64,000 nucleotides of DNA from Raillietiella orientalis (lineage: Eukaryota): NCBI GenBank assembly GCA_036172245.1, contig JAYWIR010000008.1:744001-808000 (forward strand), in the 5' to 3' direction. Made by a program: the position numbers and the translations under genes. The notes under the pieces are model-generated. The model searched no databases, was not told where the DNA came from, and saw only the letters and a list, made by a program, of their open reading frames with translations. Shown here in pieces: positions 38,401 to 59,635 of the stretch. Each line of letters begins with the position of its first letter. Position 1 is the first letter of the stretch.

Positions 38401-40361
38401 TATTTGGTGGCATCCGATTTTTTTTTTTTTTCTTTCAATCGAACTTGGTTCTCGGAAACCAAAAACTTCGAGCCGGACGCCGACAGCAGGAGAGAATATG
38501 GAGTTCCTGTCTGGATATGATTGCATGGTGGAGAATTGCCTTAATGTCCTTGAATTCGGAATGGAAACACATATGGTTGAACTCTGTGTTATAGGGCCGC
38601 TTTGCAGAGTAGCCCCCAAAGAAACCGAATCTCCCCTCCTCCCGATGCAGTTAGCATTTTAAGCTGCATCTAAATGAGAAATCCAGTTTACGAATGTTTT
38701 CCGGAGAACATTTCGGACCGAGATGTAGTAACGCGTGCTATTTCCGGGATCGAATATAGAAGTCATTCGGGATGGCAGGCAGCATTTGAAAGGTAAACAA
38801 AGAAAAGTCGGGGAGTGACACTTATGTTTCAGTATACACGTGGTGATGTGCACGCGAGTATACGGGTGGGGTATGTGTGGGTGCGCGTGTGTGTATATGT
38901 ATACATATTGAAATGAATTCCTCTCCACCGCACGTTTATCCGATGTGTCCCAGGAATTGAGAAAACATGTTCGAGGTTAATAGTAGTAGTGTCTATCATT
39001 TACAATGATTGCTAATCGTGCATCGGTTAACATATCTGTGCCCAGAAGACCCAAACAGTGGGCAGCATTGGTATACCGGCAGCTAACATGCTTACGATTG
39101 TGGATCCCCGTACTTACATGAACACACGTACAAATGTTCGCGCATGCATGTGTATATAGGCATCTGTGAATGTACCGAAGGAAAGTGTTCACGTTGCTTG
39201 CAGACACTTGCAGTATTTTTACTTGCATCAGCGATGAAATTGACATTTCATTTAAGGATCAAGATGCTTATGTGTGGAACCAGGACGAAAATAAAAAATG
39301 GAAACCGACCCTGGTGCTTTTGCGGATGAGCAGGGCAGCAGTTTGCGTCAAGTGGTCACCATTAGGTGAGGTTGTTGTGTTTTCCATTTCCATACAAATC
39401 CCGGATTAGAAAACAAGTTTGCTGTCGGCTCGGCAGCGAAGCTCATTGCTATATGCTATTTCGAGAAAGCGAATGACTGGTGGGTATCCAAGCATGTAAG
39501 GAAACCACTTGTTTCAACAGTAACAACGTTGGACTGGCATCCTAACAACGTGCTTTTGGCTGCTGGTTCCACAGATTTCAAGGTGCGATCTCAAGTCCTA
39601 CAGTACTATAATTTATCAGGCATTTTTCAGGTGCGTGTGTTTTCTGCCTATATCAAAGAGATAGAAGAAAGACCTGCAGCAACTGTATGGGGACAAAAAA
39701 TGCCTCTGGCGCAACTTATGGCCGTATTTCCAAACTCCCAAGGAGGAGGTAGGGCTCAAAAATGGCAATAAAAAAAAACTCTTATCCTGGCATAGGTGGA
39801 TGGGTGCACTGTGTCAGCTTCTCAGCTGATGGACAAAAACTGTGTTGGGTAGGCCATGATTCCACCATTAGTGTGGCAGATGCTACTGTGCAGCCACCTG
39901 TAGTAACTACTTACCGCAGCAGCATGTTACTCTTTGCAACCTGCACCTGGATCTCAGATCATGATTTAGTAGCTGCTGGCTATGGCTTTTGCCCAGTTGT
40001 CTTCCGAATTGATTCAAGCAATAAACCTGTGATGTGTTTTGTGTTGGGTGCAAATGAGAAACAAGAAACCAGCACCATGAATGCAATGCAGAAATTTCAA
40101 AGTTTGGACAGACAAGCCTGCAGTGAGGACAGTGTCCCCAGCCTTCCCTCCATACACCAGAATGCCATCACTCATCTGTCAATATATTCTGGTACAAAAC
40201 AGCATGCAACCAAGTTTTGCACCACTGGTATGGATGGCCAAATGATTATTTGGCATATCAAGGTAGGAAGACTGTGCATGCACACCCTTTTAATCCCGTT
40301 TCTTTTGCATCAGGATCTGGAAAACGCTTTCAAGTGTAACAGTCAGGTGATTACGTGCTAA
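32426..40361 (+). CDS. ARPC1: Actin-related protein 2/3 complex subunit 1 (p41-ARC / Sop2-like WD40 protein), 7 coding exons, 383 aa
   Basis: Manual join(32426..32510,33550..33701,39257..39365,39410..39582,39631..39748,39796..40262,40314..40361) = 1152 nt, all introns GT-AG and phase-compatible. The translation has ARPC1 hallmarks: [150 protein letters not shown]. Confidence 0.96.
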
Positions 40362-40444: not shown

Positions 40445-43400
40445 TCAGTCAAAGTCTTCTAATGGCGCATCCCAGTCGCGGTAACTGCGAATTTCACGAC
40501 GAATCCGATTGGCAAAGGCAACAGCACTGTTGGTACTTGGCGTCCTATAAGGGGGAGGCACATGTAAGGAGAACGCAACGGCTGCATATGCTAATGAGGA
40601 GCACACTCAGCACCCCTATAAGAATGCTGTGTGCTTCCTATTAAAAACCCTCTAGAAGTATTCATTGTCCTCATAATGGTCCAGATCGTGGTATCCAATC
40701 ACTTCCCTATGCTCTTGACCATAACCACTGAAAGTGCTGTGCGCCCTTTTCACACCAAGATACCATCCAACCCATTACTAACCTTGATCGACTGTAGCGC
40801 ATGTTTGTTGTGCCACGTTGGTACACATCTCTCGGAGAAAAGCTGTCTCTGCCATAAGAGCTGTTGACCATATTGTAACTATAGTTAGAGGAATATAATG
40901 CAGTACGGTTATAGGTGTTATATCTGCCACAGTTCAGGTGCATACTAGTAAACATGATTGTACTTACTGGCCATAAGCTGATGCTGCAGGTCCATACTCT
41001 GCGGAGAGCCGAGATTCACTGCTTGTGCGTACAGATGCACGTGAGGAGGGATGTTCAGCCAACTGCGGTCTCTTTGGATCTTTCAGATAGTTGTTGAAAT
41101 ATTCCACCTGCAAAGCACAAATGTAACATAAAAACGAAACACGGGTAAAAATGACCTCTTTCTTCACTTCCTCCACTTTTTCTGAATGCTTGTTAAAAAT
41201 ATGCTTGCGCACGAATTCGGGCCCTTTGAATTTTTTACCAGATAAAGGACATAGCCATTTATCTTTAGCCAACTCTTGTGTGTTGGCCTGTATAAATTTT
41301 TCCACCTCTCTGTAAAACACTAGCAATCAAAACTCCCTCTGCTGACCTAAGAACTTACATCTCTGCATCTTTGAGACCCAACTTTAGTGCCTCTTCATTA
41401 CTTAAAGGAGTGGGGGGATTTAGAAAAGGCTGCAACTTCTTTTCAAACAACTGTATGTAATCAGTTATCTCCTCTTGCGTGATTCGTGATGATGGAGGAA
41501 TGCCACGTGCATGCATGATGCCACAACGATTTGGCATCTCATCTTCATGTGGATATTCACTATGATTGTAATAATCTACCGAATGTACAACACGTAGATA
41601 AAGGAGCAATTTATCAAGAACTTTGATTAACGCTTCATCGCGTTCAAGTATCTCCCCAGTTGCAACTGCTGATTCACCAGTGCTATCATTGAGATTGCTA
41701 GTTCCCAGAAGTTCTTCCTCTTCAGCCGAGGCTTCCTCAATAAGATAATCAGTAATATTTTTTAATAAAGGGTTAGCAGATTCTAACAAAAATGCCTACA
41801 CGAGCTTATAATCTTCACTAATAATTTTTCTCACCTCTTTCGTTGCATGAGAGGAAAGTTGGTTTTCTGCAGAATCTGTTCCTTGCCACAAACCATACTT
41901 CTGGTCCAGATTTTGGATGATGCGCGTCGCCATTCTGATGTCTTGCCTTACAACACTCTTGTGTGATGTAATTCCACTAACAGTACGAATGCGCCGATTC
42001 AAATCTCTATTCACTATTGCACCCAGCTCACAATCCCTCAACTTGCAGCAGCAAATGATGTTCGCTTTCAAAGTTGCTACTTACTCGGATGTTATTCAGA
42101 TTCCAGCAGATTTCTTTTATGTTGACACCTCTTTCAAAAGTGACCCACCCTCGTCGGAACCATCGGCGTTCAGGTTGAGGATCTGCTATTGCTGCTCTCA
42201 AAAACCCGGGATAGCGCTTGCACATCTACAAGATTTAGTTGGATGCAAATGAACTTGTTAAAAGGGAAGGTTGCAAACTTACAGCTTCGACTTCTTGCTT
42301 TGTGATGGTAGGTGCCAAGTTACGCAAGAAAATGGAAGCTGTCCTGTGCAATGGTCTTGGTTGCTCAGTAGTAGTGTCCATTTGGTTGTCAGGTTTTATA
42401 CCTTTTGGTTCATCTCCTTCATAATCTGTTTGAGTTTCCTAATATATTGTTCACTAAACTCAATTCAGAGACCATTTATGCATGACTAACCCCACTCCTG
42501 GGAATGCTTTCCTTTGGTGCCACCTGAAGTTCAGCATCTGATGAAGGTGCTGCTTTGATTCCTGAATGGATAAGTTGCAATTTATTATTAAACTGCAATT
42601 TGAATGCTGACCTGTTATTTCATTTTTTTGCAGATCTTCCTCCTCCACATGATCCCCTAAATGAACAACAACAAATGCTAAATTCAATGAGTACAATAAA
42701 TACCTTGGATTTGGGGTTCATCTTCAGCACTGTCTTCACTGCTGCTAGTTTTGGCTTCAAAATCTCTCTTCAGCTTCCTGCTGCTGACTTTGGAACACTT
42801 CAAAAGATTCAGCTAAAGCACAGATTTGCACAAACAATTTACCTGTAGCGTGTCTTCAGCATCAGTTTCTGTCACATCAACGTTTGAAGGTGCTGGAGTT
42901 TCCTCATTTTCAGGTTTCAGCTCACTACACTAAATCATAAATCTGCATGCATTCATCCCTTACCTTTTGACGGATTCCAAATCATTGGATTGCTCTTTGC
43001 TTGCAGAATCCAATACCATGAGATCCATATCAGTACCACCTTCCAATTTGATGACAACAGAATCCAGTAACTTGAGCAGAACCTCAGACTGATCTGCATC
43101 AACAGTCAACTGATCCAAGGTTCCATTGTTGTAAAAATCCATGAATACTTCCAATCGTCTCTAAAATGTTACAATTCTTTTCAATTTGCATCCCATCATT
43201 GAATGAGCAAACTACACTGAAATGATGACGCACTTACCTTCAGAGCATTCTCGTGTTCCTCTTTGCGTTTCAAACTGTCTTCTGGGTGGTATTTGATCTT
43301 GAACCTTGAAAAGATAGACAGTATACTTTCAGTTAAATAAATTAAAGTATTGAATTTCCAGCAAACAGTGCTGGTATGCAACAAGAACAGGAAGACTGCC

Positions 43401-46400
43401 TCAAGCAGCCTGCATGGATTGCAAAAGACCATTTACCTCACATCTATGTCGTACATCTCTGCCAAAAATGGGCACGCATGCCCACCCTACTTTATAAAAG
43501 CAGCTGCTAATCTACAGTTCATCATAGAGTTCAGAGTACACTGAGCACAATACAATGATAATCACGTAACAAATGACTCGTAATCACAGCACTAACTCAA
43601 TACAGAAAAAATATGTAATGCGAATCACTAGCTCAAAATGCACAGATTCAAAGATGTCTTGTAAAATAGCTCTGAGGGAAGAATATAAGTAGTGTGGATC
43701 GCCTGTCAATAGAGGTTGCAAGTAGACGGATTTAGCAGATAGATAGCTAACTTTCTTACCATTCTTCCTCTTTATGGGTCAGAAAGAACTCATTCAACTG
43801 TTGTTTTTTGAAGTCCAGTTTATATTCATTGTACTTGCTTATCGCTTCTTCATCAGTGATGTTGTCATCTTGCTGGGCCAAAAAAGACTTAAAGGAGAGC
43901 ATTGGTGGCTGTGTAGGGCCATAATCTTCCTCTCTGAAAATAATTTTTTTTTGTTACTCCTTTAATGTCAATGATTATTACTGGATGCTTGCAAAAGGTT
44001 GAGAAAGTATTAACATTTACATGTTGTGTCTATTTGCTGAAACATTTTGGGTATTCTGAAGGTGATAAGTTCAAGCACAAATACTACATCTGTAAATACA
44101 ACAAGCAAGCAATTTGCAAAAATCACATTTAATTGGTATATAATGCCGATCGTGAAAGATTAGCAGTAAGAAAAGAAATACAACTTGATTTCTACTCGTT
44201 CTAAATCAAGATAAACAGAAATATACCAATACAATGTATTACTTTATAAACAGAAAATCACAAGCCAAAAGAAAATAACCTCTATCAAAGGAAATCATGA
44301 TGAACATCCTTCCTAAAAAATGCAGAAAATCCTCTATAAGCACAAGTTTGAAAAACCCTATTAAACACTTTTCTTTCAGACACATACACGGAAACGTTCA
44401 AATATAGGAATTATTCTTGTATTCCAAAAAACAAAACAAAACAAAAAAAACAAAAAATGAATAGTAACTCCAGGAGATTTTATAAGCAATAAGAAATACT
44501 GAAAAATTCCAAAATCACAGCCGATTGCAGGCATTTACACAGTTTCCTTCGACCTTCTTTTGCGAAAAATTTCTTTGGTTGATCGCAGTACACCCTGGAT
44601 AAAACAAACTCAGAAAATCCTGATTATTTAAGTGACCATTTATTTTACACATTTTTATACTTGTGCTTTATGCAACGATTTGATATAAACATCTAAAACA
44701 AGCTTCATGGAAAGCCCATGATCTAAAAATAATCGAATCATAATGTTCAAAACAAGTATCGCAAAAATCATGTTCCTGCTCTCAAAACAAAAGTGAACTG
44801 CAGGCTGAGATGCAGTTCAAGCCAGTACATTGACTTTTATGAAAACCTGATTTATGCTCCTGATCCAATTACATATAATGCTTGCGAAATAAAAAAAAAG
44901 GGGGGTGTATTAATCGAAAAATGTAAGTACTGTAAACATCATCATGGCAACAGTTACGAATCTAACAAGTTCTAGGATACTGAAAATAAGACTTTTTGCA
45001 AAACGACAATTCCTCGCAGAACTTACAAGCACTCAGAAACGTGTATGAGATCAAACAAGCCTTCTCCATAGATTAATTGTAAAACTCCTATACAAATCTC
45101 AGCAACAGTGCATTTGCATGTAAAAAACTTGTAAAATTTGGTATTTCCACCATGTGCGATCCAGATTTTGGCAGGATCTGTCCAGTAAAAGGCACCATGT
45201 TTTAAAATATGCAGTAGTTCGTAAGACTGAAAACAAGTGCTCATGAAACTATTTCAAGAGGTGGATGCATACAAAGAGATGTCATGACGAAAGTCAAGCA
45301 AAATCCAATTAATTTTCAATTCATTCCAACAAGACTGAAATGAACTAGAAAAGATCACAGCCAAGAACAAGGAGAAATGGTTAACATGGAACTAAAGTTG
45401 TGTACTCAACAACAAAAGAAAATAAAACAAAACTCAATGCAATGCAGTACAATTATTATGCAAAGCTGATGGAAGCATTGCTGACAAACAATTAGGCAAC
45501 TGTTAATTTGATGCACATTAAAGTTACTCGTAGGATTTTTCAGGCACAAATTCCTAATTCACATTCTAAGAAAGATTACCTTTCGCTCTTAATTTTTTAA
45601 TTACTAAATCTCCTAATGCTAGTGGAAAATACATTTGAGTTTCAAACCCTTAATAAGTTTCAAAAGACAGCAAATAAACTGACTTGATAAAAATCATTTC
45701 GCCAAAATAAAAATACACTTACAAGCCACTACTTACATCCTTCTTTCAAAACAAAACTGGCCTAGGAGAAACACTCTATACAACAAATATTTATTGACAC
45801 TGATGCAATTTAGTTTTAAGCAGAAAATAAATAATCCTACATTAATTCTATCATCTCAAATAGCAAATGTAACACTAAACTAACATGAGGGTCGTGGTAT
45901 ACTTTCATGGAAATATTCATGTATTAAAACAAGGTAACGCTACTTATAGCAAAAAAACAAAAATTAAATGAAACCATAACCTGCTAACACTTTACAAGTT
46001 TTCCAGCTATGATTTTTTAACTCTAAATTCCTTTCAGTATAAGTAAATGACCTGGAGTTACTGAAGTAACTTTTTTTTTTTGTCATTATAGTTTGATCAT
46101 TTTATCTTTATTAAAAACACTCGTACAAATGTATACATAAATAAATAATATTGCTTTAGTTCTTAAAGATGTGATTAACTAATTCGATGTCATTTACTAA
46201 TAGCTGGCTTCACAAAATATGATGCATGAATATCTTGAGAAAATGAATACAGCTATGTATCCAAATTACAAACACAACTACATGCTACTCATGAATTAAA
46301 ATCAAATAAAACTGCATCCATGGTGAAATCCTTTTGTGATTCATAAATATATTTAATATCTTATATATGTTATCCAACACATGTAGATACTTGTAAAATT

Positions 46401-49400
46401 CATTACTTACTTCATGGATTTAATTTAACTTTGTAGAGTCTGAGATAATGATTTACACTTCAGAATTCTTTAAATGATGCCGTTCATTCAAAAAATATCA
46501 CAAAATTCTAAAACTTGCAATTACTAACCTTGGAATTACTTACACTATTGACACAAATGAAAACACCCCATTCAAAAAAAAAATCCGCTCTACCAAACAA
46601 CTACATTGAAAAACTTGTACTATTTTTCCATTCTTCAAGAAATTCAGCATTCTTCAAGATATTCAGGTTTGCTCACCTTAATAGGTGTTTACAAACCTGC
46701 ATGTGAAAAAGGATGCATGCAATTTTATTTGATTTTAATTCATAAGTAGCATGAAGTTGTGTTTGTAGTTCTGGATGCATAGCTGTATTCATGTTTTCAA
46801 GATATTCATGTGTCAAACCTGTGTGCGAAAATTCAAAGACTAAACAAAATATTACTAAAGCTAACAACCATAGTGAAGGAAAATTTACATAATATAATAG
46901 CTGGAATTTTCCTAAATACTCAGAATATATTATAAATAAATATCTTATTCTATTATCAAACAAATGTAATGACCAAACAAATGTAATGACTTGATGCAGA
47001 GCACATTGGATGTCCAAAAAGAAAAAAGAGCAGTATATATGTGTGTAATGTTAGGATTTCATATACTTCATGAAATCTGAGGAACTCAGTGAGCAAATCA
47101 TGTATAATTATTAAGATGCATATTGAGAAATCAGTCAGTTTACAAAAAAAACTAGACAACTTATTAGCTAGCATACCTGTTGGTATAGTTAGATCCGTAT
47201 GTAACAGCAGGAGAAGCACTGCATGGATATGATGAATATGCATCTGATGCATATGAGGAATATCCACTGTAGGAGTTATCTGCATAGGCATATCTTTTTT
47301 CCTCCCTAAATAACAGTTACAATAGTTACTACGCCATCTGGTTTCAATTACCAATCATTGCGGACTCTTTTCACAGGAGGGCTAAATTCATGTGTTCGTC
47401 TCGGACTATATGCCCTATCTCTTGCAGTATTTCGATAATCTCGGGCCCCCAAGGCTCCATAATCTCCTCTTCTCGACTGGTTCCACGTGTCACTTCTGTC
47501 ACCTCTACCTCGCCCAGCATAATTTAGGGAAGGAGTTTTCCCACCTCTAAGAAACAAAACAAAAAAGAATTCTTGATAAAAATCTGGGATGCCAGATACT
47601 GTCACCTAAATTTGATTTTGAAATAAACGTGTACTTAATTTTCGTAAAAAAAATTTAAAATCATGCACCAAACAAGAAATTTAAATCACAATCTGAAAAT
47701 AAGTGCTAATGATGAAATGATCTCTATCATTTTTGTTACCATGAGCTACATCTAGACTTATTATTTATGAAAAATAAAAATATCGCACCAAAACTATTGA
47801 AATTAAACGTGTCACATCATTCATTGAATTCGATAATCTTTTACTTTTTATTGCAACTTATAATACTGTAAGTCTTCCACTACAGCATCCTCAAAAAACT
47901 GCATTTCCAAACACTGCAAATTTACGTCTTCTTGAGAATTCCCAAATTCTCATAGAAGTTTTTAAAATCCAATCTATACGTTGAGAAGAAAGCCCTTGGT
48001 CCATTTTCATGAAACACTTTACTTAGAGTTTATTTTCACAAAACAAGATTTTTGGAACACAATTTCAAAACTTAATCCTCACTGATGACAGTAATACAAT
48101 TTTCTGTTGATATATATTTCAAAGAAATGCCTAAAGTAAATCCAAAACCAGTGAATAAACATCTGTATACTTATGTCAAACACCTTTAAAGAGATAAAGA
48201 ACTAAAATTATGCAGTATGCCAAGTAATAACTAACAAACTAACAAACAGATTCAATAACATGGTAACATCAAACAGAGATGGATATTCATAAATATTTAG
48301 CTGCATTGCTGCAGTTCTGTAAAACAAAATTAGAGAGTCTGCAAATTAGAGAATTAAAAATACAATTATTTGTTTTTGGTTATAGAAACTCCTTGAAAAT
48401 CTCAAACGCATACTTCTCTTTCTACTGGAATTCCAGATTAATTCTTCATATGAGAATTCAGAAACTTTATGACAAACTGTTGTAAAAAAAAATTATGAAC
48501 ATAAAGGATGATGATCTCAATCATGCCTACTTTTTTTTATTGCTATTTATTCTACAAGCAACTTTATCTTGCGTACTTTTATTATTTTTACTCATTATAA
48601 TATTTTAAAACTGTTTTGATTTTACTTAAGCCTGTCCTGCAGTCATGCTTTTGGTTTAAGACAAGTATTTATGTAAAATTTGAATTTTAAATTCATATGT
48701 GCACATGAATGTAAAATTTGATCAATGTACACTCTAGAAAGTTATAAAATGATCTTCAACGAAAAAATTTCTAAAAGAGGAAACTTACACTCCAAAATTG
48801 ATTACTTTATTGCAGATGTGGAAAAAATGAACATTCACTAAAATACTTTTTGGGAAATTCAAAATACTTTGCTACTGATTCTAAAATACCTTTTTCAAAT
48901 TAAAAGTAGAAAAGATAATGGCATTACTTCAATGGAGACTAACAGAAAATATACGCTTCTTCATTTTTTCTCAATTACATATTACATGAAACCTTTCCAT
49001 TTCCTTCAATAAGATATTACAGTAAAATAGAACGTAAAGCATTCTAATTACGGTAAATACCACAAAAACACCTGATAAGATCTGAATAGAAATTATCCAC
49101 CATACTGCATTTTAAAAAGAAATTTTCACATTGCAGAAAAGTCATTAACTTTTTTAACCTCATGAACATTGAGACAGAGACATTAACACCAACGATATTC
49201 CAATTTTTTTCAGATCTCACAACAAAACAACGGACATAATCAACGTTACTGATAATTTATAAAATAACCACTTATATTGTCTTTATACCCTGATACTGTG
49301 TTATATAAATAAATTTTGCGAAAATCAATCACTAATAAAATACAGAACAAAGCAAAAACGTATACTTATGTGATTTTCAACATAAATGTGCCAAAAAAAA

Positions 49401-55189: not shown

Positions 55190-59635
<4,446 letters not shown>

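Follow-up and report, generated by a model that had tools for sequence, protein, structure and literature searches.

Does the intron that splits the EEW/F motif of Ars2 (SRRT) act as a switch between full-length and shortened ARS2, and does it do so in Raillietiella orientalis? The locus lies in a 64,000-nucleotide (nt) stretch of contig JAYWIR010000008.1 (assembly GCA_036172245.1, positions 744,001 to 808,000), which we call the window and whose first base is position 1. Here, a 455-nt intron separates ...HKEEEW from FKIKYHP, and an earlier note, made from the letters alone, had read it as hiding two in-frame starts and a poison cassette: a conserved switch of the ARS2c kind, in which an N-terminally truncated protein would be made while full-length ARS2 is shut off. 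The poison part of this proposal holds best, and alternative transcripts are repeatedly annotated at the junction in arthropods, but a conserved start of a short protein is not supported. We lean toward regulated unproductive splicing, through which the intron would tune the amount of full-length ARS2, with the ATGs being incidental.

Position and contents of the intron

The gene is an ARS2/SERRATE orthologue: the SERRATE_Ars2_N and ARS2 domains (Pfam PF12066 and PF04959) are each detected on single exons, and exon 14 has one match in the genome, making Ars2 single copy. The closest relatives of the 877-amino-acid (aa) protein are arthropod proteins; in a quick tree, it pairs with that of the ostracod Darwinula (Shimodaira-Hasegawa-like approximate likelihood ratio test [SH-aLRT] 92, unstarred), a pairing without strong support, such that the protein is placed as arthropod and probably crustacean. 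In mouse, the intron-5 amplicons pass into the exon encoding FRSKYHP, with base and phase of the junction as in the window (PMC8860587, supplement); the position is homologous to mouse intron 5, the human gene being represented by amplicon pieces only. As for length, the 13 introns downstream do measure 39 to 77 nt (one of them 45 nt after its acceptor was moved, formerly 55 nt), but the upstream introns, which had been omitted, measure 1,889, 46, and 3,243 nt; because two of these are longer, 455 nt is not the gene's outlier.

All the elements described in the note are present: the intron itself, ATG (a) at 43456 followed by GAG/GTAAAT, the open frame from ATG (b) at 43432, and a 75-nt cassette that creates a TG/A stop (Table 1). 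Splicing from the internal donor (43437/43436) would join MYDIDV plus AG in phase to exon 5, and retention of the 3′ part would carry ATG (b) through 42 codons and an AG/G arginine into FKIKYHP. Any protein started inside the intron would lack the part of the N-terminal domain that exon 4 encodes. With splice-site matrices built from the gene's 17 introns and the orthologous sites, the internal donor (7.7) and the upstream acceptors (6.0 to 7.5) score within the gene's own range (its donors score 3.6 to 11.8, and exon 7 uses CAG/GTAAAT). The 75-nt cassette depends on position 43512, the second-best acceptor upstream of the donor (6.3, versus 7.5 for 43459), and two other cassettes are candidates. 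In each case, the stop falls well before the last junction, with 13 introns following downstream. A protein search with the open frame of ATG (b) considered 14 candidates and gave no match at E up to 10, which is weak evidence.

How often such features arise by chance was estimated in two ways, from 3,000 draws out of a set of 967 real non-coding pieces, each 455 nt long with AG at its end, and from 1,500 dinucleotide shuffles. An ATG with an in-phase donor, as in (a), occurs in 7.7% of real pieces and 5.8% of shuffles, any ATG open to the 3′ end of the intron in 25% and 28%, and a retention ATG with at least 40 codons in 2.0% and 4.3%. Jointly, (a) and a long (b) occur in 0.4% and 0.7%, a combination picked post hoc. 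Since the features individually arise in 2 to 27% of non-coding pieces, the window taken alone is suggestive, not decisive.

Orthologous introns carry recurrent cassettes

A scan for the end of exon 4 followed by GT yielded 103 metagenome loci; after loci with less than 150 nt of intron sequence were dropped and near-duplicates merged, 73 distinct loci remained including the window (72 besides it), with 29 of the introns complete. Seven of the complete introns come from Daphnia- and copepod-like loci, and each of the seven exceeds every other estimated gap of its gene (557 to 926 nt, versus mostly 40 to 280 nt for the others, two loci having a 3′ gap that is nearly equal); in several other animals, this intron is not the longest.

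Within other clades, conserved islands lie in the intron. In group A, an unplaced clade, a conserved block of ~350 nt with non-triplet indels ends in G/GTAAG in 9/9 aligned loci (L013, L016, L020, L022, L035, L037, L038, L070, and L077). Daphnia-like loci keep a strong acceptor followed 242 nt on by CAG/GTGAG, and a donor, either GT or GC, is retained in the copepod-like loci. In the 11 loci with a hairpin (see below), the best acceptor-to-donor cassette always contains a stop or a frameshift.

The starts fare differently. An in-frame ATG precedes the conserved donor in one of the nine group-A loci, being missing from the other eight, and is also absent before the donor in the Daphnia-like, mayfly-like, and insect-like loci; a retention ATG is found in 7 of the 29 complete introns, which is the chance rate. 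The proposal that a truncated protein begins at these two ATGs as conserved starts is not supported. Cassettes with internal donors recur among orthologues and the pre-donor in-frame ATG does not, a pattern that favors unproductive splicing over a conserved short protein.

Three further loci or groups deserve mention. L082 has an intron of only 67 nt at the Ars2 site; in L040, the intron seems, by eye, to continue into bacterial-like coding DNA; and five copepod-like loci (L003, L005, L026, L031, and L059) share a further motif 50 to 100 nt behind the hairpin, GCCTTCYCTTGGC, which forms a small inverted repeat and directly follows a donor that is GT in three of them and GC in two.

A CRCAA-loop hairpin shared by arthropods and vertebrates

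The 13-mer TGCGCGCAATGCA (at most two mismatches) lies in the intron of 9 of the 73 distinct loci; on the opposite strand it matches in one locus, which also has a sense match, and it is absent from 159,839 flanking bases. A tenth, insect-like locus carries a variant. The covarying hairpin of these ten loci (L004, L005, L026, L031, L036, L048, L055, L059, L066, and L067) is defined here by a C(G/A)CAA loop that is closed by a G.U pair and sits on a UGC/GCA stem. When the ten motifs are aligned, 88.6% of cells pair and 11 cells are changed on both sides; either value was reached in 0 of 500 shuffles (relatedness ignored), and slid controls pair at 13 to 50%. Exon peptides mark the loci as Daphnia-like, copepod-like, mayfly-like, other insect-like, and vertebrate-like, with one unplaced, and human intron-5 amplicons carry the same stem with a CACAA loop. 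This loop presumably resembles the target of RBMY, a likeness that the literature search did not bring up. UAG motifs flank the hairpin, and in most loci the donor follows 61 to 249 nt further on.

The canonical form is patchy, being present in 8 of the 28 other complete introns, and is absent from the conserved block of the nine group-A loci. Searched against 81 loci, the hairpin model gives E below 0.2 only for its ten training loci and one near-duplicate, and Rfam returned two chance-level matches for seven loci (E of 0.67 and 0.93). No description of the hairpin was found in the literature, in a search that covered subscription journals thinly and did not extend to preprint supplements such as snoFlake Fig. 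S20. As far as our searches reach, the hairpin is new, and so is the link between this intron and the short isoforms of arthropods.

Short isoforms annotated at the junction

Among 289 fetched proteins of at least 600 residues with the junction motif (five more lack it), 266 have the normal EEW/F sequence, 19 begin with a new N-terminus, 3 have insertions, and 1 lacks the W. The 19 come from at least 9 of 20 protein clusters (among the members listed) plus two search hits, and the 11 genera represented are those of crustaceans, chelicerates, insects, and a millipede. Their new N-termini are 1 to 64 residues long and unrelated between most genera, and start codons differ even among decapods; related 3′ ends recur as PASR between Schistocerca and Cryptotermes and as ..GR among decapods. 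Because AG/G forces arginine, 17 of the 19 end in R. N-terminally shortened models starting in exon 4 or elsewhere also occur, and an MPASR exon was not found in the insect-like partial introns, which are truncated at 5 kb or less. The annotation pipelines in question rest on RNA sequencing (RNA-seq). In our reading, alternative transcripts through this intron are probably widespread, with pipelines assigning whichever in-frame ATG comes next.

These models speak for an ARS2c-like protein, made most simply from an internal promoter and ATG 43456 (675 aa), or else from ATG 43432 when the intron is retained (711 aa). Missing from such a protein would be the Arg-rich region, the basic stretch PPVKRVR, and the helices with which the N-terminal domain opens. 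ARS2c proteins are in print, as the note had stated: mouse ARS2c1 and ARS2c2, cytoplasmic isoforms of 710 and 648 residues, are reported with a 100-kDa band (PMC8860587). The spread of junction-started isoforms over clusters, the recurrence of related N-terminal ends, and the joint rarity of (a) with a long (b) all point the same way. Against it, the annotated N-termini are products of gene models rather than observed proteins and are unrelated between genera, and the in-frame ATG is present in one of the nine group-A loci. Without an internal start, moreover, an out-of-frame upstream open reading frame (ORF) overlaps ATG (a), and five ATGs precede ATG (b). On balance, we regard this outcome as unlikely in R. 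orientalis, although it can coexist with regulated unproductive splicing.

The window's own hairpin and promoter-like signals

In the position equivalent to that of the orthologous hairpin, the window has a 10-bp hairpin after UAGGG and before the internal donor. Its loop is UGCG rather than a G.U-closed C(G/A)CAA, and the CRCAA model does not match the sense strand of the 455-nt intron; its inner stem, TGGGC/GCCCA, is that of L036. A hairpin as clean as this one arises in 1.3% of 1,000 shuffles and in none of 294 non-coding pieces. The 13-base core of the conserved hairpin occurs 26 times in the genome, none on the Ars2 contig (a reversed control occurs 6 times, and ~25 are expected at even composition).

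The same bases can be read as a promoter. A TATA-like TATAAAG is followed 27 nt downstream by an initiator-like CCATTTT with +1 at 43469; transcription from there would give a 33-nt first exon with ATG 43456 and would bypass the upstream ATG at 43479, another point for the ARS2c-like protein. A TATA element, an initiator, and a free ATG in this order precede 2 of 474 non-coding ATGs. The motif was noticed post hoc, and its spacing is short, the optimum from TATA to start being ~30 nt. Sequence alone does not separate the hairpin reading from the promoter reading.

Proposed regulation by unproductive splicing and its alternatives

The reading toward which we lean makes the 455-nt segment an ancient regulatory intron of ARS2. 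The internal donor would be used part of the time with some upstream acceptor, or the intron would be retained; in either case, a stop would follow exon 4, and nonsense-mediated decay or holding back of the transcript would lower full-length ARS2. The hairpin, putatively homologous to that of the orthologues, and the UAG motifs ahead of the donor would set the frequency of the event, probably as feedback. The in-frame ATGs would mostly be by-products, since AG/G imposes arginine and phase on any ATG that happens to be open.

A number of observations weigh against this account. A donor as strong as the internal one occurs in 27% of real non-coding pieces and 19% of shuffles. Stops are the default in a non-coding cassette: all 17 upstream AGs, when paired with the internal donor, give a premature stop, and as plain retention already reads TGG TAA immediately, the stop of the cassette carries little weight. 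When the best internal donor of each of the 29 complete introns was compared with controls, it scored above the reverse strand in only 17 and above 90% of shuffles in only 3, such that no general enrichment of strong internal donors is seen. The nine group-A loci were selected, from 21 distinct loci, for sharing the block, and the motif that was tested is missing from L028 and L054, two complete introns of that group. Compared with the fetched orthologous introns of at least 150 nt, the window intron finds no sequence match (best E 1.1); the conservation described above is that of other clades. The CRCAA model gives 22 matches in the window at E up to 10, none of them at 43465-43488; folding of the surrounding 106-nt region is not more stable than that of shuffles (z −0.45, versus −1.78 for the hairpin alone); and the distance of ~40 nt from loop to donor is shorter than that of most orthologues. 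In addition, the passages on the human SRRT poison exon do not name its intron (10.64898/2026.04.02.716167).

A more ambitious form of the same idea is possible though rather doubtful. Here, the CRCAA hairpin would have been kept since the common ancestor of vertebrates and arthropods, in or beside a poison cassette, and would sense the level of ARS2 as well as serve the ARS2c switch; the window would run this circuit with a rewired UGCG hairpin and, possibly, an internal start.

Alternatively, the ancestral element may have decayed in this lineage, leaving an ordinary leftover intron that has chance cryptic sites and is spliced constitutively. The missing canonical hairpin, the failure to align with orthologues, the chance levels of the single features, and the two longer introns upstream all fit, and loss does happen, as the patchiness of the hairpin and the 67-nt intron of L082 attest. 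What makes decay improbable to us is that a single stretch of 110 nt holds donor, hairpin, UAG motifs, and acceptors, arranged as in the orthologues, and that the intron has kept its length although the 13 that follow are short. Very improbable, finally, is that the main alternative event is use of acceptor 43371, which would insert 22 residues in frame and account for part of open frame (b): it has the top internal acceptor score (8.1, versus 7.4 for the true acceptor), opens no stop, and has parallels in three gene models with residues inserted at the junction (P0045, P0070, and P0114), yet those three are mutually unrelated, no similar peptide was found, and the added residues would interrupt a structural domain that is conserved.

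Gene model and neighboring features

Coordinates are collected in Table 1.

Table 1. Features of the Ars2 locus in the window, with two examples of the CRCAA hairpin from other loci
Feature	Position	Strand	Remarks
Ars2/SRRT coding region, 18-exon model, 877 aa	40652..49563	-	Open frame; sole Ars2/SRRT gene in window
Coding exon 4, ends ...HKEEE-TG	43760..43933	-	Carries SERRATE_Ars2_N profile positions 1-43
Coding exon 5, FKIKYHP...ALK	43238..43304	-	
455-nt phase-2 intron, GT..AG, TG/G, W/FKIKYHP junction	43305..43759	-	Homologous to mouse intron 5; one genome match
Internal 5′ splice site GAG/GTAAAT, last exon base 43437	43431..43439	-	Best-scoring internal donor, 7.7
ATG (a) mini-ORF MYDIDV(R), ATG 43456 to internal donor	43437..43456	-	Predicted protein 675 aa when spliced
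ATG (b) open frame into exon 5 if retained	43305..43432	-	Predicted protein 711 aa; T at -3
Candidate 75-nt poison cassette, TG/A stop	43437..43511	-	Candidate acceptor 43512, 6.3
Alternative candidate 235-nt cassette, TG/A stop	43437..43671	-	Acceptor score 3.7; size near 242-nt Daphnia-like cassette
Alternative candidate 22-nt micro-cassette, TG/A stop	43437..43458	-	Best upstream acceptor, 7.5
66 nt behind strong acceptor 43371 (8.1)	43305..43370	-	If used, in-frame 22-residue insertion; paired with the internal donor, would bound a 66-nt intron
Out-of-frame upstream ORF overlapping ATG (a)	43444..43479	-	Starts at ATG 43479
10-bp hairpin, UGCG loop, after UAGGG	43465..43488	-	~40 nt before donor; -11.7 kcal/mol
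TATA-like TATAAAG	43490..43496	-	Candidate internal promoter element, noticed post hoc
CRCAA hairpin, L048	2894-2948	-	
CRCAA hairpin, L067	1281-1335	+	

Two parts of the gene model are uncertain. The acceptor of exon 8 (42843-42780, reverse strand) is placed at TTTTGAAG (42798), which preserves the frame, a nearby AG at 42788 not doing so, and the last coding piece has two candidates within 40445-40727 (reverse strand). Intron 3 contains a 97-nt inverted repeat, 91% alike, at 46225-46321 and 46713-46810; introns 1 and 3 have no matches elsewhere in the genome in a search that gives lower bounds. On the forward strand, a WD40 gene at 39370-40361 with weak Pfam hits, which we take to resemble ARPC1, has its last frame stop ~85 nt from the end of the distal last exon of Ars2, and the 3′ ends of the two genes may overlap. 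The end of another gene, at 55190-56000 (reverse strand), presumably belongs to an AMPK alpha subunit.

Significance and comparison with known systems

As a hub, ARS2 links the cap-binding complex to RNA processing or decay, and the matter at stake is how its level and its short cytoplasmic form are controlled. A cis-element common to human SRRT intron 5 and arthropods offers one small mutational target, in human cells as in Daphnia, and bears on how far the ARS2c transcripts in print are chiefly substrates of decay. In mouse, ARS2c is induced by puromycin (PMC8860587), which fits a target of decay. Taken alone, the window is of modest weight: it probably adds another example to a regulatory arrangement already known, and its own hairpin is non-canonical.

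The switch itself is of an already known kind, both splicing-coupled decay of SRRT and a human poison exon being in print. SRRT/Ars2/E01A2.2 is among nine genes that are targets of alternative splicing coupled to nonsense-mediated decay (AS-NMD) in human, mouse, fly, and worm (PMC8652244), a conserved poison exon of human SRRT is included at 19% (10.64898/2026.04.02.716167), and inclusion of Srrt intron 5 varies among mouse tumors (PMC2917353). The window resembles these cases in having a candidate stop-bearing cassette in an RNA-processing gene, and the mechanism is common to animals; the SRRT passages of the two AS-NMD papers name no vertebrate-arthropod cis-element, and the cassette borders of the window are candidates only.

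The nearest parallel is ARS2c from SRRT intron 5 (PMC8860587). Like it, the window has a phase-2 intron at W/F[KR]xKYHP and a possible in-frame start derived from that intron; the same N-terminal part would be lost, and the predicted 711 aa compare with 710 aa in mouse. The differences are that the start is not conserved across the loci compared here, that conservation of the intron is described for vertebrates only and the hairpin goes undescribed in the sections concerned (PMC8860587), and that no intron sequence shared with the window is seen. Smndc1 (PMC11357089) and RBM39/caper (PMC8652244) are, like ARS2, splicing-related genes with a deeply kept poison exon. Autoregulation is demonstrated for Smndc1 (PMC11357089) and is putative for ARS2, and whereas the caper exons of fly do not align to those of mammals (PMC8652244), the human and arthropod introns of ARS2 have a hairpin in common.

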